A stretch of 10,694 nucleotides of DNA from a virus (taxonomy: Duplodnaviria; Heunggongvirae; Uroviricota; Caudoviricetes): the IMG/VR virus record IMGVR_UViG_2711768038_000002; one strand, written 5' to 3'. The notes below the pieces were generated by a model. It saw only the letters and a program-made list of their open reading frames with translations. It did not search any database and was not told where the DNA came from. Of this stretch, positions 1,159 through 10,694 are shown in pieces (the first letter of the stretch is position 1; each line of letters starts with the position of its first letter). The translations under genes and the position numbers were made by a program.

Positions 1159-1349
1159 AGAACAATAACAGCGCGTTGCAGCAATTACAGGAAACATCTT
1201 GTTACATACTTGGTTTTATGTCACTAACAAACTAGAGAAATTATGCATGAATAGACATATCGATCGTTATTTTTGTTGGTGATATACTTAACTGAATTTT
1301 ATGCACAACCATGTTGCGAATTTACCACATCATTACAAGGCAAACGGAA

Positions 1350-1667
1350 ATGAATAAGGATAAATGCTTAAATATAATTATATTAATAATCATTATAACA
1401 ATAATTGTTATTTCTTTTTATCCTATGTCATCAAGCTCAAAAGGGCATGATACGCAAAGTATTTCAGGTGACAACTTTAAATTAAGATCTTCTTTCTCAA
1501 GAGAATATTCATCATGCATATCAAACCTCAAAATGATAGCGCTAGACTTTGCTGGTCATAACATAGATTTCAACAGCCATAGCCAGTTCATAGCTTCAAG
1601 TGGCGAGGAAAAAATATTAGTAAAATGCACAAAAGATAATAAGTTACTATACATGCAAAATAAATGA
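1350..1667 (+). CDS. Hypothetical small membrane-anchored protein (moron), 105 aa
   Basis: ATG at 1350 with a weak GGA-type RBS; an in-frame ATG at 1311 has no RBS. The N-terminus has a single hydrophobic segment (LNIIILIIIITIIVISFY) followed by a hydrophilic Ser-rich domain. The gene is very AT-rich and is followed immediately by a strong hairpin terminator. No recognisable family. Confidence 0.4.
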   Translation: MNKDKCLNIIILIIIITIIVISFYPMSSSSKGHDTQSISGDNFKLRSSFSREYSSCISNLKMIALDFAGHNIDFNSHSQFIASSGEEKILVKCTKDNKLLYMQNK

Positions 1668-1673
1668 GAATTT

Positions 1674-1700
1674 CCGCACGCTTATCGCGTGCGGTTTTTT
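1674..1700. terminator. Rho-independent terminator between convergent genes (canonical for + strand, weaker for - strand)
   Basis: Perfect 8-bp stem CCGCACGC / GCGTGCGG (1674-1681 and 1687-1694) with loop TTATC, followed on + by TTTTTTATTTTTT. It sits between the stop of the small + ORF (1667) and the stop of the - strand membrane-protein gene (1699-1701). Confidence 0.65.
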
Positions 1701-3066
1701 ATTTTTTAGGTAATATATAGTATATTACCTTATATGAAAAATAGACAAATGATACAGTTATTATATTTTTCAAGAAAATAAATAAAAAGAATTCAAGACT
1801 CTCCCTTGCCATAAAAAATGAAAAAGGCATTGTCATAAGTGCAGCTATTTGTAATACACCAACTCTCCTCATCAATATGATTTTATCAAGAAATCTAAAA
1901 ACAACGCCTGAGATAACATATGAGCACCAGAAAAAATACTTTCCGAAAATAACAAGCGATGACCCAAGCAAAGTTGATGCCATATTCAATCCATTGCTAA
2001 GACCAAGAGCACTCACGGTAAAGTAATATGAGCTATTCATTGTGACAATTGGTTTGTCAGACCATATGAATCTTGGGATAAACCCTGAAAATTGAGTAAA
2101 GAAATAATAAATACCACCAACATTGCGATCATTGCTAAAGTATTTAACAGCTATACTCTGATAATTGATAGGAGATACGCTATCAGCTAAATATCTGACT
2201 ATAATGCCAAAAAGAGAGCCAGACGCTGAAATATCAACATCTGAGTATCTCACTATAGCCATTACACCAATTAGAATTAAGCACACAGAGCCTATGCATA
2301 TTAATTTCAACATGCCAATTAAGCCTCTAGAGTGGCAAATAAGAGCAACAATAAACATTGCCGAAAACATTACATTTCTTGAGCCACCAATAAGTACGTA
2401 ATATGCCATCCCAAATAACAATGACATTATAATTGATTTAACGAATACATACTTATCGTCAGATGTAATTGCATACACTATAACAGCAGAAACAAAAGAT
2501 GACATTATCATTATAATGACACCACTACCAGCATTCCCGCCAAGCTTTAAAGCATAATCATCAGAATTAAAAGATATGCCGTTTATGGCATAAAAAGCCA
2601 TCATCCCAACAAAACTTAAAAACAACGTTGTTCTTACAAATAATTTTGGGCTACCAATAAAATATTTATCAGAAAAAGTTATTTTATTTCTTCCTGCCGC
2701 TGTATGAGAGAATACATAAAACAAAACTATACCAATAAACGACAACGTAGACACATCATTTATATATTGATACGGCATATATTCTGCAGAACTAACTTTT
2801 GCCCCAACTCTAAACGGAAGCGATATATACCCAAAAAAATGAGTAAAAACGAGGAATAACATCCCAACAGATTTGAATGACACGCCATGTTTTTTGAATG
2901 ACACGGCACTTAGATATATTAATATTATGGCATACAACGCAGGTAGCACATAAGTAAAAAATGATTCATAAATATTCATAATATTGTATGTAAAAATGAC
3001 TATTTTTACCCGATCTTTAAAGAAAGTACAGGATGATAGCGCGTTTCTACGCGCCATCATAGTCAC
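1699..3066 (-). CDS. Polytopic inner-membrane protein, putative O-antigen modification enzyme (Wzy-like polymerase candidate); lysogenic-conversion position
   Basis: 455-aa ORF with at least 10 long hydrophobic segments and a roughly 60-aa loop rich in Arg and aromatic residues between TM blocks. Very AT-rich compared with neighbours (by eye). The start ATG (3066-3064) overlaps the tailspike stop TGA (3065-3063) as ATGA; alternative in-frame starts lie near 2979. It occupies the position immediately downstream of the tailspike where P22-like phages carry oac or gtr conversion genes. The family call is inference only. Confidence 0.6.
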
Positions 3067-5246
3067 CTTACAACAAATTTGCCATTGCTAATGTCGTTAA
3101 CTAGTGTTGCCACTATGTTAGCAACATCCTTCGTAGATAGGGTGTTTACGTCTCCACCGCGTAACGCACCGGAATTGGTAAATGGATACTGCTGAGGTTG
3201 TGAGCTATTGGCAAACTGGTTGTTAGCCTCATAACGTTTTGTTGGTACAGGGTTGTACCCAATACTGCCTGTGGTTGTGTCAGGAGCCACGCAGTTCGTA
3301 ATGTTCACTATAGCGGCAGAACCACTACCATTTGTATATATTGGCCTGTTAACTGTCCCGAATGGTTGCACAGCTACCAGTCTGTTAACAATAACACTAT
3401 GTGTGGCTAGTGCCTGTAAATAAGATTCTGCGCTCCCGTTGCACCCCCTCAAGTTCACATTATCAACCTCTATGTGGCGGCAGTTAATGGTGACGATATA
3501 ATGACCATTTTCTGTGTTAGGGTAAGCGCCTACTATGCGAACATTTTTTAATGTTAAATCTGTGGTTGGCACCGCAGCAGGCCCACCGTTGAAAACAAAC
3601 CCTTTTGCACCATTTGCAAGTGCGTGTATCGTAATGCCGTCAAACTCGATGTCGGCAAGATTAGTCGTGGTATTGGCTGAGTTTGCCAAAAAATAAACAG
3701 CCTCAGCAGAGCAACCTGATATCAAGAAGTTAGAAAAACGCATCCTTGTGTTTTCTACCGGATAGAAGCGGCATAACAAACCCTGCGAGCAGTTACGAAT
3801 AACAACGTTATCATAGGATACGTCACTAGCTCCTTCAATTGCGACACCTGCATTCGAACTTTCTACATATAGTCCAGTAACTACTCCATTACGGAAATTC
3901 CCACGAAGCCCGTGGCTTTCACAGTTTTTGATTGTGGCGGCGTTTATGTTAACTCTTGTAATAGCTGTCCCTTCCCCGCTTCCGTTCACAAGGTCGTCTG
4001 ATTGAACACGCAAACCGTTACCGCCAGAGGTATTAATGCTCACATCGTGAATCATAAGATTAAGAGTACGGTTTGGCCGGTGTGATGAGAAGAACAAAGA
4101 TGAGGCCCAAGTGTTTCTGCAACGGATATGATGGACGTGCGCCTCTGTAGGGTCATTGACAATGATCGCCATGCCAGTGCGGTTGCTGCCATCTGGATCT
4201 TGAATTTTCCCACGACCACAATCATGTGAGTACAGATTATCGGCAAGAACCCATCTCCCATAATCCATCGTTACGTTGCTATTCCATGCCCCCTGCAATT
4301 CACACCCTGAAAGCTCAAGTGTACCTGCAGATTGCATGGCCAAACCAACCCCTGGGTCAAATGAAGCATTCTGCCGATAAAAATCAAACAAGAAATTACC
4401 GACAATGCGTATATCATATGGAGTATAGTCAAACTCTTGATTTGATTCGTTCCATGTCCGTGGGGATCTGAGCCATAATTGTCTGGAATCTACCGTCACT
4501 TTTGGCAATAACGGCTTTATGAGGATGTCTCCCTGAATATTAAATATACCTTCTACAGTTACGGGAGAGTAAGCGATCCCGATATTTCCAGATAGTGGAA
4601 GTAGTCTACTAAGTTGAGCGTCATTTTGTGCAATTTTCCAACCAGAATTAACCTCATTAAAAAATGATATTGGGTAAAGTTCAATATTATCATTAATTAC
4701 AGTTGAGTCATAACTGGTAATTGTCAATGGTGATGATAATGGTGTGCTCATCATCATAAGGGCGCCATCAAGCCTAACGAATCTTACACCTTCGGGAATT
4801 AAGTCTCCTATTTTTGCATCAATTCCAATTTTATTAGGATAAACCTCACCACCTAAAAATCCATTCATTCCTCGAAGCCAAGATAGATTTAACATGACTG
4901 ATAACTGATCTGGATCGTACTTCAGCACATTAGGGAAATAGAACTGCTGTGATCCATATGCATCGTACACAGCCATAGAATGCCCTTGTACAGTAACGAA
5001 CTTAGCAATCTGTCCGTTATATACAGGGTAGCCAGCAGCGTTAATAATTATTGGTTGCGAAACGGGAATGTGAGAGCCGTCTTCGTTCTCCACATAAACC
5101 TGAATTTGGTTTTCAGGATTTACCGGGTCCGTGTCAATTTTACCGATATAAATTTTGCCATTGGCTACGGCTTTAAAAGAACGAGCCATAGTGAAGAGTT
5201 GCGAAGGCATACTCACTACAACATTGGCATTTATTGAATCTGTCAT
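3063..5246 (-). CDS. P22-family tailspike protein (conserved N-terminal head-binding domain plus divergent beta-helix receptor-binding/depolymerase domain)
   Basis: 727-aa uninterrupted ORF with GGAG 8 nt upstream of ATG 5246-5244. The first ~110 aa ([59 protein letters not shown]...[17 protein letters not shown]...NVLKYDPDQ) match the P22 gp9 / Sf6 / HK620 tailspike head-binding domain as I recall it. The remainder shows repetitive N/G/V-rich beta-helix-like segments. Confidence 0.9.
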
Positions 5247-5304
5247 TTAATTTGCTCCAGATGCAAGGAATCGCCGCAGCATGGCTACGGTGAATTTTGG
5301 GCAT

Positions 5305-5327
5305 AAAAAAACCCAGCCGAAGCTGGG
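5305..5327 (-). terminator. Rho-independent terminator acting on - strand transcripts, upstream of the tailspike gene
   Basis: Stem CCCAGC (5312-5317) / GCTGGG (5322-5327), loop CGAA, flanked on + by a 7-A run (5305-5311), which is a U-tract on the - strand immediately after the hairpin. Confidence 0.55.
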
Positions 5328-5379
5328 TCGTTGCGTTGGTTATCTGTCAGTAGTTATGCACTGGCTGAAGGATTTGTAC

Positions 5380-5409
5380 AAAAAACCACCTGACGGTGGG
5401 TTAATTTTT
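5380..5409 (-). terminator. Second hairpin terminator candidate (mainly - strand; weak on +)
   Basis: Stem CCACC (5386-5390) / GGTGG (5395-5399), loop TGAC, with a 6-A run upstream on + (U-tract on -) and TTAATTTTT downstream on +. Confidence 0.45.
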
Positions 5410-5427
5410 GCATTTACCTGGGCCATA

Positions 5428-5456
5428 TTGACTACTTATAAAATGAGATCAATATT
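5428..5456 (+). promoter_or_regulatory. Candidate sigma70-like promoter for the small basic protein gene
   Basis: TTGACT at 5428-5433, a 17-nt spacer, then AATATT at 5451-5456, about 35 nt upstream of ATG 5493. Pattern match by eye only. Confidence 0.25.
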
Positions 5457-5492
5457 TAATCGCCCAATAACGGGTGTATGTTGAGGTATATC

Positions 5493-5672
5493 ATGGCGAA
5501 AAAACCAGGTGAAAACACAGGAAAAAACGGCGGAATATACCAAGAAGTTGGCCCACGCGGCGGTAAGAAAGACAATTTTGCCACCGTCAAGGACAACGAA
5601 AGGCTTCCACCAACAACAAAGCCAGGTCATGGCTGGGTATTGGATAAGCGAACTCCAGACAGCAAAAAGTAA
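5493..5672 (+). CDS. Hypothetical small basic Lys/Gly-rich protein, 59 aa
   Basis: ATG 5493 is preceded by GAGG (5483-5486) at 6-nt spacing; the upstream in-frame ATG at 5478 lacks an RBS. Stop TAA 5670-5672 is followed by a hairpin terminator. No family recognised. Confidence 0.45.
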   Translation: MAKKPGENTGKNGGIYQEVGPRGGKKDNFATVKDNERLPPTTKPGHGWVLDKRTPDSKK

Positions 5673-5678
5673 TAATCA

Positions 5679-5700
5679 AGCCGGTTCACTCCGGCTTTTT
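5679..5700. terminator. Hairpin terminator shared by the convergent small-protein (+) and zincin-like (-) genes
   Basis: Stem AGCCGG (5679-5684) / CCGGCT (5691-5696), loop TTCACT, followed on + by TTTTT. The stop codon of the - strand gene (5686-5688) lies in the loop. Confidence 0.5.
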
Positions 5701-6051
5701 GATATGTCGCTCGCAGAACTCAACAAGCCTGCTCATTAAGTAGCAGTAAGTCTCGTTGGCTCTTCCTGGTTCAACATCAACACCTACCCTTGAGCAGATA
5801 TCGAATGCCATGTGAGCGCACTCATGGGCAATAGTAGATAGTTTGCCATTGAACACGCCTATCACATGCAAAACACCATTCTCGCTACTCATTGTATGAG
5901 ACGCTCCGTTGGCGTCCGAGTCATGCACGTCAACGCCAAGTTTTTGATGCAGGCGTTGCCATTCTGGAAAGTCTCTACAAAACACAATTGTACCGCTCTC
6001 AAAGAGCGGAACGAGCATCTTTGGTACGTTTCCAATGTTAACTTTTTTCAT
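5686..6051 (-). CDS. Putative zincin-like metallopeptidase (HEXXH motif; ImmA/IrrE- or SprT-like), 121 aa
   Basis: ATG 6051-6049 with AGGA 4 nt upstream. The protein contains AHECAHMAFD (H-E-x-x-H zinc-binding motif) preceded by a LGVDV...NGKLSTIAHE arrangement resembling ImmA/IrrE-family peptidases. The family call is from motif recall, not search. Confidence 0.55.
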   Translation of the reverse strand: MKKVNIGNVPKMLVPLFESGTIVFCRDFPEWQRLHQKLGVDVHDSDANGASHTMSSENGVLHVIGVFNGKLSTIAHECAHMAFDICSRVGVDVEPGRANETYCYLMSRLVEFCERHIKKPE

Positions 6052-6085
6052 GGTATCCTGCGCAAAACTAAGGAGAGTTAATTAT

Positions 6086-6571
6086 ATGAAAAAATCACTG
6101 TTAATTATCCCGCTTCTGCTGGCTGGGTGCGCAAAAGTAAGCGACTATCAGGCAAGTTGCGAGCAACGCTATCCAAAGCTTAGCGATATGGCTAATTGCC
6201 TTGATGCCAGCTTGAAGAACGACTCTCGCATGGCATCAGCACCAACACCTAAGCTTTATGTCCTTGCTGCGAAGATGCTCGGGCAAGGTGTCGATGAAGG
6301 CAAGATAAGTGACACACAGGCAAGACTTGAACTTCAGAATCTTTATGTTCAATTACAAAGCCAAGAACAAGCACAACAAATAGCACAAAGCCAAGCATTC
6401 CAGCAGGCTTTATTGAATTATCAGGCTGTAAACACAATGCAAGCGATCGAGCAAAAAGCGCGCCAGCCTGTTATAACTCAACCTTACCCAACACGCGTTG
6501 ACACATATACAAACTGCAATTCAGGATTTGGAAACACGGTAACATGCAACAGTAGCAGTAATATAAGATAG
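6086..6571 (+). CDS. Lipoprotein (signal peptide with lipobox LLAG-C), Gln-rich central region; candidate superinfection-exclusion or moron product
   Basis: ATG 6086 is preceded by AGGAGAG (6071-6077). The N-terminus MKKSLLIIPLLLAGCAK is a classical lipoprotein signal peptide with lipobox. The mature part has a Gln/Ala-rich, probably helical segment and several Cys. The ORF-track start at 6035 lacks an RBS and would bury the signal peptide. Confidence 0.7.
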   Translation: MKKSLLIIPLLLAGCAKVSDYQASCEQRYPKLSDMANCLDASLKNDSRMASAPTPKLYVLAAKMLGQGVDEGKISDTQARLELQNLYVQLQSQEQAQQIAQSQAFQQALLNYQAVNTMQAIEQKARQPVITQPYPTRVDTYTNCNSGFGNTVTCNSSSNIR

Positions 6572-6584
6572 TTATATCTTATTT

Positions 6585-8432
6585 TTATTGCTGTTCTGCT
6601 GTAATTTGGCTTGAAAGTATAGGGCGTATCGCATTTGCAGCATTATTTAGCGCTCTTTCATAGGCTGGTGTTCCTGCTTTGGTGTTTGCCAAACGTAAGA
6701 GAGCATTCCTTGCTGCTTTTGACTCATACAAGCGCATCATTGCACCGAAACCAGCCTCAAGCCCCATTGATACGCCAAGAGTCGCAGTTGCGCCAATCGT
6801 CCTTATCCTGTTGGCTTGCGATTGCCCCGTCTGAGTTACTACATTTGCGGTGTCTGACCTTGCTGTTTGCTGTAGAACTTCATGAAGAGAATCAAGCTCT
6901 TTCATGTGCTTTCCAGAAAAAATAGTGTTGTAAATTTCACCGCCTGACTGAGATTTCAGCTTATTAACTTCAGTGATGAACTTGGCTGGAGAGTCACCGG
7001 CCTTTTCCGCTATTTTGCTGACGTAAGCTGCACGCATAGCATCTTTCCCTTTATCATCCAATGCGCTCCAGATTCGTTTCACGTCAGATGGTTTTCTGCT
7101 TAATACAACGGTATTTATAAGTTCAGGACTGGCTTCACTGCTTGCCTTGTTGAGCTTGTTAGCAATGTTTTTATTAAGCACCTTATTATAAACGTTTGCA
7201 TAATCGGAATTTGCTTTAAGGTATTTTGCTGCGTCTGATGCACCGAGGTTTTTAGCAACTGCGTTACGAAGGTCTTTTGACATTGCATTCTCTACCATAT
7301 TGGTAGCTGCTTTTGCCTGGTTGGGGAAGACCATAGCATCTCCCTGAACATTAGATCTAAATGCTGTTCTGTGCTGACGCAAGAGATCAAACGTAACATC
7401 CAAATCAGTTGCAGGGTTAGCTAATTCTTCACGTAGGTTACGCAAGGATGTAAGCAGGCTTTGATTGGCTGAAGTCCCAAGCCGTTCCTGTCTTGCGATC
7501 GCTGCATTCAGAGCATTCATGGTATTTGTGGTATCAACTGCGGCATTACCCATTTTATTGGTGACGTCATTGATAACAGCGCCAGCAGCATCCTTCCGCC
7601 CCCTTAACGTGGTGGTCAGAGATTTCACCACATCATCAGGGTTGTACTCACCAAAACGGTCAAAATAATTGCTTACCAGCTTACTACGCGTTGCATATTG
7701 CTCCGCTCGCTTTAAGCCTGTCCCGAGCAAAGCCCCCTCGGCATCCTGAGTAAGGCCGCGAGTGAAAGCATTTTTCGGCGGGATAACATCAGATGTCATT
7801 GGTGTCACGCCCATCGATTCTGATGTGGCAATTTTCTTCGCCACTTCTGGCGCAATATCACCTTTTATAGCCGTTATTCCACGCCCTATTCCCTTTGCTG
7901 CTGCGGAAAGAACCCCCTGAGCGGCAAGGTTAACTCCGGCATTTTTGGCTGCATTTTGTGCGAAATCGCCTTTCTGATTTGCGGCCTCTGCCAGTGATCC
8001 AATAGCCATGCTTCCTGCCGTTCCAACGCCTGGAACTAAATACCCGCCAATTGTTTCACCGGCTTGCGCGTAAGGGTCGGTCGGTCGATCTACTGGACGA
8101 TAGACATCGTCCAAAACCTTGGGGCCACCAAGCCCCTGGCTGATTGCATTAATCAGACTTGCGCCACCCTGCAATACGTCAAATGGTATGTTTACCAGAC
8201 CACGACCAGCCTGCTCTGCAATTTGCCCTGCACTTTGCCCGCCTGTGAGCCAATCGCCAGCTTGTTGCATCAATGATGGTTCTTCACGTGCTGGTTCATT
8301 ATTGGCCTGATTAACTGTTTGTTGCTGAACAGCCTGACCAGCAAAATACTCATCAATGGCGGTGCCAATATCTTCCGTGCTCGTACCATCAGGGAAGGTA
8401 AATGTCTTACCGTTTGCAGTTACTTTCATCAT
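6585..8432 (-). CDS. P22 gp16-like ejection (DNA-transfer) protein
   Basis: 615-aa ORF. The N-terminus [33 protein letters not shown] matches my recollection of P22 gp16, and the size is close to P22 gp16 (about 609 aa). Start ATG 8432-8430 overlaps the stop TGA 8431-8429 of the upstream gp20-like gene as ATGA. Confidence 0.85.
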
Positions 8433-9896
8433 TCCACCGTAAATTGAATTCCTGATTTTGAGGTATATGATCCGGATTGACTCTGCTGCTGTTGGGTATT
8501 TGCCGGTTGTTGGCTATTGCTCTGTTGTTGACTATTTGCAGCACTTGAAACCACCAAAGCATCATAAACGCGACCAGACTGACCACGTAATGAGTTATAT
8601 TGGCCCTGCATTTTTCGCATTTTTGTTTCAGTAGCAGCCTTGGAATCACCGGGCTGAGGCAGGTACATTTTGGAATACTCCTGCATCTCTGGCAGAGTAA
8701 TTGCTGCACCTGTTTCTGGGCGCAAAATTGCATACAAGGCGTCTCTCGCATTTACCATATATTGCTGCTCCGCTGGTGATAGGCTTAAATTTGCAATAGT
8801 CCCATCACCAAGAGAGCGATTTATTAATGCAACTCGCTTAGGGTCAATGCTTTTACTAAGCTGATTCATTGAGTCCATTGAATCTTTTAATCGCAAAGCA
8901 AATCCTGCCGCCTTCTTGGAACCCTCATTAGCCTTATCTATGATGCTTTGCGCTTGTGGCAAGCTAATTGGTTTAATGCCATCACCAGATATAGGTTGGT
9001 TTAGTTTTCCGGCTTCCTCGCTGCCATCGGTGTAATACTTAGTTACCGAGCCATCAGGATTGGTTTCAACCTTAAGTAATTTCTTAGCATTGGGATTAAT
9101 TCCCGCCGCTGCCGCAAATGCCGCTGCACCATTTGGATCCGCCTTTAACATTTGCGCGTACTGATTGTAATTCTGCATTGCAGCTGTTGGTGCATATGCT
9201 GACGTTAACGCATTTGCTCGGCTAATATCCTGCCCTCTCGCCTGAAGCGCCTCGCCAGCCTGATTGCTGCGAATCGTCTCTGCCAACTCGCCACGCTCAA
9301 TATCCCGACCAGCCATCTTGTCCTGAACATTGAAGTAATCAATCGGACCAAGAGCAGCCATTCCAAGGTGATCAACAAACTCACCAAATCCTGAAGGGTT
9401 CTGCTGATACATCTGAGCAACGCTGTTAGGGTCAACACCGACGCGAGTCAGTTCCTTGGCGTTGTTTTGCAGCCATGATTGCATTGCTTCTGGAGACGAT
9501 GACGCAAGGCGTGCGCCAGCCGCTAAGGTGCCGATAGAATTACGCTGGTCTTCATCAATGAATCCCATGCCTTTACGAACGGATTCAATCTGGTCTGGAT
9601 ATTGAGTAGCCAACTGACGCAAAGCACCGCGATCACCAGACGCATAAGCATTAGCGTACGCCTGCTGAAATTCTTTCTGCCGCTGAGCCTGCTTTTCCTG
9701 CTGAACCCCCCCCCGCAATACCTGAAAGGCCTTGCAAAGCAGTCAGCCCAACATTGTTAGCGCCTGAACGCTCAATATCATTGTTCTGCCTGATAAGCTG
9801 AAGCGTATTGCCGATGTCATTTACGCTCGGAGCGTTTGAGTTGACGCCGCCGATACCAGCCAACAATCCGCCGTTTGTTCCTTGCCAAGTAGCCAT
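8429..9896 (-). pseudogene. P22 gp20-like ejection protein gene interrupted by a frameshift in a homopolymeric tract
   Basis: Two overlapping - strand ORFs in different frames: 9896-9651 ([10 protein letters not shown]..., 81 aa, ATG with a GGGG RBS) and 9718-8429 (429 aa, opening on a TTG codon). They meet at a run of 9 C on + (9706-9714), which is 9 G on the coding strand. Removing one G gives a continuous reading ...[13 protein letters not shown]... of about 489 aa, comparable to P22 gp20. Confidence 0.75.
9706..9714. repeat. Homopolymeric C9 tract (G9 on the - coding strand) at the gp20-like frameshift site
   Basis: Direct count in the sequence: ctgaa ccccccccc gcaata. Confidence 0.9.
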
Positions 9897-10184: not shown

Positions 10185-10268
10185 CTGGTTTGATAACAAT
10201 CCTCGCACTCGCGGGGATTTCTTTTATCTGAACTCGCTACGGCGGGTTTTGTTTTATGGAGATGATAA

Positions 10269-10436
10269 ATGCACTTCCGAGTCACAGGTGAATGGAATGG
10301 AGAGCCATTTGACAGGGTTATCGAAGCAGAGGACATCAACGACTGCTATAACCACTGGATGATATGGGCGCAGATAGCACATGCAGACGTAACCAATATT
10401 CGAATTGAAGAACTGAAAGAACACCAAGCCGCCTGA
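10269..10436 (+). CDS. Hypothetical small protein, 55 aa
   Basis: ATG 10269 with GGAG (10258-10261) upstream; sequence MHFRVTGEWNGEPFDRVIEAEDINDCYNHWMIWAQIAHADVTNIRIEELKEHQAA. The stop TGA 10434-10436 sits in the loop of a strong terminator hairpin. It falls below the ORF-track size cut-off and has no recognised family. Confidence 0.4.
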   Translation: MHFRVTGEWNGEPFDRVIEAEDINDCYNHWMIWAQIAHADVTNIRIEELKEHQAA

Positions 10437-10493: not shown

Positions 10494-10694
10494 ATGCAAC
10501 ACGAACTACAACCTGATTCACTGGTTGATTTGAAATTCATCATGGCTGATACTGGCTTCGGTAAAACCTTCATCTATGACCGGATTAAGTCCGGCGACCT
10601 GCCAAAAGCCAAAGTTATCCACGGTCGAGCAAGATGGTTATATCGTGACCATTGTGAATTCAAAAATAAGCTCTTAAGCCGCGCCAATGGGTAA
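10494..10694 (+). CDS. torI: Excisionase / recombination directionality factor, AlpA-family winged-helix (TorI-like)
   Basis: 66-aa ORF with GGAGA (10481-10485) upstream of ATG 10494 and stop TAA at 10692-10694. The central FIMADTGFGKTFIYDRIKSGDLPKAKVIHGRARWLYRD fits the AlpA/Xis DNA-binding pattern. Length and sequence match my recollection of KplE1 TorI; not verified. Confidence 0.8.
   Translation: MQHELQPDSLVDLKFIMADTGFGKTFIYDRIKSGDLPKAKVIHGRARWLYRDHCEFKNKLLSRANG

Follow-up and report, generated by a model that had tools for sequence, protein, structure and literature searches.

HkcC, an accessory protein of P22-like phages, as a probable minimal zinc peptidase of its own family, encoded tail to tail with a YjzC-like gene

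The stretch of DNA analyzed here (the window; 10,694 nucleotides, IMG/VR record IMGVR_UViG_2711768038_000002, Caudoviricetes) carries on its minus strand, at 5686-6051, an open reading frame (ORF) running from ATG to TGA that encodes a protein of 121 amino acids (aa) and about 14 kDa, with AGGA located 4 nt 5′ of the start codon. Sequence identity and gene order identify this ORF as hkcC, which is one of the accessory (“moron”) genes of P22-like phages. Its product, HkcC, bears an HExxH motif, and an earlier reading made from the letters of the DNA (the sequence-only reading) had taken it for an ImmA/IrrE-like peptidase lacking its adjacent repressor partner. We conclude that HkcC is of the zincin type and falls into a family of its own, PHROG 1365, being neither ImmA/IrrE nor SprT-like, and we place the probability that it works by itself as a zinc peptidase in the lytic cycle, as part of a new family, at roughly 0.6. 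Within its own clade, the gene forms a fixed convergent pair with orf59a, which encodes a YjzC-like protein, and both genes share a terminator hairpin; this pair is a new observation of the present analysis. The identification of the gene as hkcC is far more secure than the mechanism of its product.

The protein encoded in the window is equal in length and 99.2% identical to HkcC of phage HK620 (AAK28904) and to the product of the P22 ORF at 13861-14223 (NC_002371), and the gene is intact, with one substitution relative to HK620. At the DNA level, the segment 5250-6079 shows 98% identity to both phages. Orthology with HK620 hkcC is also indicated by synteny between gene 16 and gene 9, since the order 16, variable gene, hkcC, orf59a, remnants, 9 is common to the window, P22, and HK620, including the convergent orientation of orf59a and the terminator. 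The HK620 annotation names the ORF hkcC (“unknown”) and places it beside “HkcD/orf59a” and a bidirectional terminator; the P22 equivalent, flanked by sieA and by orf59a-mnt-arc-ant, is unannotated or “hypothetical” in most records. The window differs from both phages in having a lipoprotein gene in place of hkcB or sieA, and in its host element, which is a truncated KplE1-like prophage.

The genome paper on phage epsilon34 gave this variable region the name “ant moron” and listed hkcC and 59a there as genes of unknown function (PMC2629481, 2008), and a search of the literature on hkcC, orf59a, phrog_1365, YjzC, and “ant moron” turned up no functional study. The published pid ORFan of the Pid/dgo locus of P22 was considered as a possible identity for hkcC and rejected, as pid sits between orf25 and orf80. 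The sequence-only reading had correctly described an HEXXH-bearing ORF of 121 aa between a lipoprotein gene and a gene for a small basic protein; we find the motif at 5812-5826, a lipobox in the lipoprotein, and the small protein to be Lys-rich. It had missed that the ORF is the known hkcC of HK620 and P22, and that the small basic protein is the product of a conserved convergent partner.

The assignment to PHROG 1365 covers the whole protein, with residues 1-121 aligned to profile positions 3-120 of 127 (E 1.7e-39), and the same profile is matched by every one of the relatives tested (134/134). An exhaustive profile search retrieved 546 clusters at E ≤ 1e-3, nearly all of 100-140 aa, so that the family comprises more than 500 sequence clusters. 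It extends over temperate and virulent phages and several bacterial phyla. One distant member belongs to coliphage mEp044, where its gene separates the lysis genes from those of the terminase, and others were found in virulent phages, namely the N4-like phCDa and ECBP1 and Vi1-like phages such as Det7; further members occur in phages of Ralstonia, Achromobacter, Serratia, Flavobacterium, and Enterococcus. A scan of viral sequences with alignment A2 returned near-identical P22-like copies only, and a genome scan returned 11 loci. Five members of the family (P0049, P0063, P0067, P0116, and P0133) carry charged, Lys/Arg-rich C-terminal tails of 45-75 residues, and in another (P0094, 283 aa) the PHROG 1365 core is preceded by a long N-terminal extension; the core domain is therefore fused to other modules in some cases.

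The putative active site is strongly conserved in the family. By our own estimate, a random protein of 121 aa would contain HEXXH with a chance of about 0.004, and the motif is found in 141 of the 145 family representatives listed, the exceptions being three fragments or frameshifted sequences and one protein with HKAAH. Among close homologues (43-78% identity), H76, E77, and H80 are present without exception and N99-E100 is present in all intact sequences. HExxH is also invariant in alignments A1, A2, and A3, although the members of A3 were chosen for this motif. In an alignment of 123 members, which were not chosen for E100, this glutamate is retained in 122, together with G49 (122), Y104 (118), and C103 (100); across the broad alignments, E100, G49, and Y104 reach 90% conservation or more. 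The second histidine and the glutamate are separated by 19 residues in 81 of 120 members and by 18 in another 30, together 111/120. A spacing of 19 residues is that of thermolysin-type gluzincins. No conserved histidine after H80, and no Cys4 or ribbon segment, was seen in the alignments.

A model generated with AlphaFold2 from an alignment of 18 sequences reached a mean predicted local distance difference test (pLDDT) score of 89.1 and a predicted template modeling (pTM) score of 0.83. It consists of strands at 11-13 and 21-25, a helix at 28-37, strands at 49-56 and 59-66, and helices at 71-88 and 100-116, in the order E-E-H-E-E-H-H: a small sheet with a backing helix, two strands, an active-site helix bearing HExxH, and a “glutamate helix” bearing E100. 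The gluzincin arrangement, with HExxH on one helix and a downstream glutamate on the next, is thus found in the model, and the whole length of HkcC is predicted to be one minimal gluzincin catalytic domain. The sequence-only reading had also allowed for another zincin family and another role, and it is this option that motif, conservation, and predicted fold bear out; the two checks it had proposed, a zincin fold on structure prediction and conservation of the HEXXH residues among homologues, both came out in favor of a zincin.

Structural comparisons place HkcC among uncharacterized phage proteins. A Foldseek search of viral models (BFVD) matched 26 phage proteins at E ≤ 1e-3, with template modeling (TM) scores of up to 0.83; most of these are uncharacterized, two are labeled SprT-like, and one is labeled a metalloprotease. 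Against the Protein Data Bank (PDB), Foldseek gave chance-level matches only (GTPases, aminopeptidases), with no solved zincin close in structure. When the single protein was compared with PDB sequences, the only matches were to thermolysin and neutral protease; they were not significant (E 0.09-0.7), and in these weak alignments HExxH falls on HExxH and NE on NE. The profile of 134 members gave only insignificant metzincin matches around HExxH in PDB sequences (myroilysin and BMP1, E 0.04-0.1). With the thermolysin-type gluzincins (M4), HkcC therefore shares HExxH, the 19-residue spacing, the N-E pair, and the layout of an active-site helix followed by a glutamate helix. In contrast, thermolysin is a two-domain enzyme of about 300 aa with NExxSD, whereas HkcC has 121 aa and lacks both the second domain and the SD; the spacing fits, but the sequence similarity does not place it in the M4 family.

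The partner gene orf59a lies tail to tail with hkcC (Table 1). Its product is Lys-rich, 98% identical to 59-aa proteins of P22-type phages, and gives a weak match to PF14168 (YjzC); AlphaFold predicts three beta strands (pLDDT 85.9), and the family is strongly conserved, with the motif GGIYQEVGPRGG...LPPT. All the HkcC-clade genes that we examined (43-100% identity) have, 6-37 bp downstream, a convergent gene for a YjzC-like protein of 59-61 aa, and a hidden Markov model (HMM) screen of the fetched loci found the convergent pair in 83 of them, among which are the window and the non-P22 loci L088-L097. Comparison of these loci distinguished eight contexts for the hkcC-orf59a cassette. These are the ant morons of P22-like Salmonella and E. 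coli phages; P22-like prophages of Morganella (60.5% identity); clusters of tail genes, immediately ahead of the tape-measure gene, in prophages of Rosenbergiella, Klebsiella, and Xenorhabdus; a Proteus prophage, with tail genes on one side of the cassette and, on the other, an Arc-type repressor gene accompanied by two Bro-N genes; a Pasteurellaceae prophage, in whose early region the cassette separates replication genes from the terminase; and one metagenomic contig.

In all contexts, hkcC is co-oriented with the surrounding lytic genes and orf59a is opposed to them. In P22, Morganella, and Proteus, orf59a lies downstream of a co-directed ribbon-helix-helix gene of the Arc/Mnt type, and in the Pasteurellaceae prophage its place is behind a small ORF, Arc-like by eye and without a Pfam match. 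As P22 orf59a lies between mnt and the terminator t mnt, we infer that in this phage it is read from Pmnt, that is, expressed from the prophage; mnt is absent from the window. The association is one-sided. No YjzC-like neighbor was found in a paralogous clade (Orf129) or among the more distant members, the phages checked being ST64T, epsilon34, mEp044, phCDa, Det7, and ECBP1, and YjzC-like genes occur without hkcC in prophages of S. bongori and in one non-phage chromosomal context. The pairing may thus be functional, or may be kept because the terminator of one gene sits in the end of the other.

The shared hairpin, annotated tORF59A in HK620 and t mnt in P22, contains the stop codon and the last codons (K-K-P-E) of hkcC, and on the other strand it has the form of a classic terminator, complete with T run. 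Each of the diverged cassettes has an equivalent hairpin. With the orf59a terminator built into the 3′ end of hkcC, the two genes would be hard to separate by recombination. The C-terminal K-K-P-E of HkcC (5686-5697) is thus encoded by the terminator stem of the opposite gene (AAA AAG CCG GAG TGA), and its conservation in the protein may mirror RNA structure and not protein function.

Some further observations concern the cassette and its mobility. Outside P22-like phages it is found near immI-like parts (L093 10241-12221; L096 4656-6837; L095 4836-5594), which include Arc-type repressor genes, Bro-N or KilA-N antirepressor-like genes, and a SNIPE/T5orf172 nuclease gene, and this suggests transfer of the immI-type module as a whole between genomes of podoviruses and siphoviruses. 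On the metagenomic contig L088, the cassette is followed by a gene (1330-1968) for a 212-aa protein of PF18894, “putative phage metallopeptidase” (3.3e-44), so that two unrelated metallopeptidase-like genes stand side by side. The YjzC-like Orf59a family itself reaches far beyond phages, including a chromosomal context beside ychF (loci L111-L116).

According to the reading favored here, hkcC of an intact phage would be expressed in lytic growth by read-through of the late operon, because no promoter of its own was detected and it is always co-oriented with the lytic operon. RNA polymerase starting at PLate has been described as reading through the moron into the tailspike gene (PMC2629481). 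In the cytoplasm, H76, H80, and E100 would hold a single zinc ion, and E77 would activate a water molecule as general base, with the substrate chain lying against the edge strand. Genomic linkage points to Orf59a as a candidate substrate, and the presence of the family in virulent phages points to a conserved host or competitor (rival-phage) protein as another. Several findings weigh against this reading. HkcC has no family match in Pfam, NCBIfam, or PADLOC, where only noise was returned (lantibiotic models on “HEC”). A zincin of 121 aa without the lower subdomain may need a partner or have a non-proteolytic role, and the link to orf59a could be passive. Moreover, although no promoter-like site was seen on the minus strand in 5200-6700, the scan was a crude consensus search that an internal hkcC promoter could escape.

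A broader version of this idea is that PHROG 1365 represents a new family of phage effector proteases that remove a specific conserved protein, or a broadly distributed anti-defense protease; we regard it as rather improbable. Virulent phages would then make the protease among their small genes of unknown function, temperate phages would make it with their lytic genes, and the target in the HkcC clade would be the prophage-expressed Orf59a encoded tail to tail with it. If true, the cassette would amount to a two-gene switch, a “lysogeny factor plus lytic-cycle eraser”, for which there is no described precedent. Among the models of known anti-phage defense systems in PADLOC-DB 2.0, hkcC, orf59a, and the lipoprotein gene had no match at E ≤ 0.1.

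The other explanations differ in what they make of the partner gene and of the metal site. A functional pair with opposite expression, in which Orf59a is made by the prophage and HkcC in lytic growth, and in which HkcC removes or neutralizes Orf59a by cleavage or binding or is itself inhibited by Orf59a, would account for the convergent neighbor at 6-37 bp in all eight contexts, for the constant alignment of hkcC with the lytic operon, and for the position of orf59a against it, often behind an Arc/Mnt gene. It would also agree with the prediction of Orf59a as a folded, highly conserved small beta protein. Nevertheless, we consider it unlikely, as the hairpin physically belongs to the 3′ end of hkcC and the linkage may be mechanical, as YjzC-like genes exist without hkcC in S. 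bongori prophages and on a non-phage chromosome, and as the Orf129 clade and the distant members checked lack such a neighbor. A non-peptidase role, with the metal site serving another reaction or the structure, for example in an inhibitor or adaptor of a host protein, is suggested by the unusually small domain, by the distance to any solved zincin, and by the many small phage accessory proteins that work by binding. Against it, E77 is as invariant as the metal ligands, which is the pattern expected of an active hydrolase, and it is lost in one full-length representative only (HKAAH); this explanation seems to us quite improbable.

Membership in a known zincin family was weighed in the same way. 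A SprT/Wss1/Spartan-like protease acting on DNA-bound or DNA-crosslinked proteins is the nearest alternative in terms of Pfam signal: at E ≤ 1, 33 of the 134 relatives touch SprT-like PF10263 (best 1e-4), the HExxH helix is similar, SprT-like labels occur among the BFVD neighbors (up to E 5.6e-5, TM 0.72), and the Lys/Arg-rich tails of 4 or 5 of 145 relatives could bind nucleic acids. However, all these alignments stay below the gathering score (25.6 bits) and cover the HExxH helix only (profile positions 63-78 or 63-96 of 108); the family consensus reaches 14.6 bits over the same helix, and the window protein has no match. SprT-like proteins use a histidine as third ligand and often possess a C-terminal zinc ribbon, whereas HkcC has a glutamate as its candidate ligand, without a conserved third histidine and without a ribbon or DNA-binding domain, which leaves this possibility improbable. 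The ImmA/IrrE reading (MEROPS M78, PF06114), with a substrate encoded elsewhere such as Mnt, Arc, C2, or the repressor of another prophage, is very unlikely. HkcC does resemble these enzymes in being a small cytoplasmic HExxH...E zincin on a mobile element, and in many phages the cassette lies within an immI-type module by Arc/Mnt repressors and Ant, Bro-N, or KilA-N antirepressor-like genes. Yet PF06114 gave no match to HkcC at E ≤ 1 and is not among the 25 Pfam families listed for the 134 relatives, IrrE-labeled phage proteins in BFVD match the model poorly (E 0.03-0.07, TM 0.27-0.41), and no adjacent Xre helix-turn-helix gene was present in any context examined; the nearest repressor, where there is one, is a ribbon-helix-helix Arc/Mnt protein two genes away. 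In addition, hkcC is kept where mnt, arc, and ant have been deleted (HK620 and the window), SieA exclusion needs no HkcC, sieA being enough by itself (PMC10883804), and relatives occur in N4-like and Vi1-like phages. Cleavage of a lysogeny repressor is unlikely as the purpose of a family that occurs in strictly virulent phages. The label “ImmA/IrrE-like” was an interpretation and not an observation, and its framing as a protein without a partner was wrong; the profile checks that the sequence-only reading had recommended for PF06114 and SprT turned out negative for the protein itself.

P22 and HK620 are classic model phages, and their immI region is well studied, while hkcC and orf59a are still without a function. 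A conserved zincin-type active site, a wide family, and a fixed convergent YjzC-like pair in its own clade make HkcC a good experimental lead in a model phage, of moderate interest, with nothing strongly surprising yet. If the family consists of effector or anti-defense proteases, hundreds of “hypothetical” phage genes would gain an annotation; otherwise, a tempting mis-annotation as ImmA/IrrE has been corrected.

The paralogous clade mentioned above, with 38-40% identity to HkcC, includes Orf-129 of ST64T, gp70 of epsilon34, and Orf129 of phage L. It has in common with hkcC the PHROG 1365 assignment, the motifs, and the character of a late-operon passenger, and some phages carry both paralogues. 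It differs in its site, which lies between the lysis genes and dec or the terminase and not in the ant moron, and in the lack of a YjzC-like partner. A tie between this clade and the decoration protein Dec was considered and rejected, as Dec follows only in ST64T and epsilon34 and does not come after the Orf129-clade gene in prophages of Kluyvera, Citrobacter, Mixta, and Atlantibacter.

Table 1. Features of the window with their positions, strands, and supporting evidence
Feature	Position	Strand	Description and basis
118-aa ORF	1311-1667		With hydrophobic segment
WzyE-like O-antigen polymerase gene	1699-3066	−	PF06899, 1.6e-17
Tailspike gene	3063..5246	−	P22 gene 9 type head-binding N-terminus; late-operon gene downstream of the moron, same strand as hkcC
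Two terminator-like hairpins (5329-5310, 5399-5386)	5310..5399	−	At HK620 tANT/tMNT positions; ant/mnt remnants
Sigma-70-like promoter candidate (TTGACT-17-AATATT)	5428..5456	+	Upstream of orf59a; promoter scan
orf59a (HK620 hkcD region)	5493..5672 (longest ORF from 5478)	+	59-aa YjzC-like small beta protein; phrog_3202, 1.3e-31
Bidirectional terminator hairpin AAGCCGG-loop-CCGGCTT (AAAAAGCCGG-loop-CCGGCTT)	5678..5697	both	Terminator scan of both strands
hkcC	5686..6051	−	121-aa minimal zincin-like protein; PHROG 1365
N99-E100 codons	5752..5757	−	Third zinc ligand (predicted), where helix 100-116 begins and 19 residues beyond H80; read directly
H76-E77-C78-A79-H80 codons	5812..5826	−	Predicted zinc-binding/catalytic motif in helix 71-88; CAT GAG TGC GCT CAC read directly
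Equivalent of P22 promoter PsieA	6022..6051	+	In first 10 hkcC codons, toward lipoprotein gene; homology only
Lipoprotein gene, 161 aa	6086..6571	+	Product starts MKKSLLIIPLLLAGC; lipobox LLAGC; phrog_6067, 2.9e-109; no Pfam match
P22 gene 16 homologue (ejection protein)	6585..8432	−	Late-operon gene upstream of hkcC, same strand; P22/HK620 synteny
55-aa ORF	10269-10436	+	phrog_676 (unknown function), 5.4e-39

The lipoprotein gene is divergent from hkcC, with its start 34 bp away, and fills the slot of sieA in P22 or hkcB in HK620. Since similarity to P22 ends at 6079, 7 nt short of the ATG of this gene, the gene looks like alternative cargo driven by a PsieA-type promoter; the record P22-pbi annotates PsieA at 13861-13891, which corresponds to hkcC codons 1-10. 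This makes the lipoprotein a candidate prophage-expressed exclusion factor. In E. coli 90-1, a hypothetical gene of like size and position occupies the slot without hkcC, so the lipoprotein gene is not linked to hkcC. The promoter candidate upstream of orf59a is the only promoter-like site in 5200-6700, where shuffled sequence yields about three such sites, which places it at chance level.

The window spans intS (1-1158) to torI (10494-10694), the integrase and excisionase genes of KplE1/CPS-53-type prophages at argW. The ejection genes, the ant moron, the tailspike gene, and O-antigen cargo are retained, and the head, lysis, regulatory, and repressor genes are missing; of the genes for Mnt, Arc, and Ant, found at this location in P22, only remnants are left, as in HK620. 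The window is thus a 10.7-kb, KplE1-like, defective P22-like prophage without a late promoter, and hkcC, while intact, is probably little expressed in this remnant. The statement of the sequence-only reading that no helix-turn-helix gene is evident in the island holds as far as Xre-type repressors are concerned, but not for torI, whose product is an AlpA/excisionase-type DNA-binding protein (phrog_66, 2.7e-8; weak HTH_17) and which is annotated as torI in E. coli genomes.

Compared with the intact relative in E. coli 90-1, gene 7 has been reduced to about 100 C-terminal codons, with the deletion joint to the torI side near 10198-10205. The gene 20 homologue is split over two frames near 9700-9726, residues 1-59 being encoded in one and residues 68-491 in the other. 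Gene 16 is intact, and its product shares 99% identity with its counterpart from the E. coli 90-1 prophage. A segment at about 1250-3066 is low in GC (30-34%, against about 45-50% elsewhere), holds the WzyE-like polymerase gene and the 118-aa ORF, and is likely serotype-conversion cargo acquired from elsewhere. At the opposite end, the DNA immediately upstream of torI holds a strong hairpin and T run (GCCGCCTGATGGCGGTTTTTT), which come after the 55-aa ORF; this ORF is kept beside torI in many E. coli genomes.

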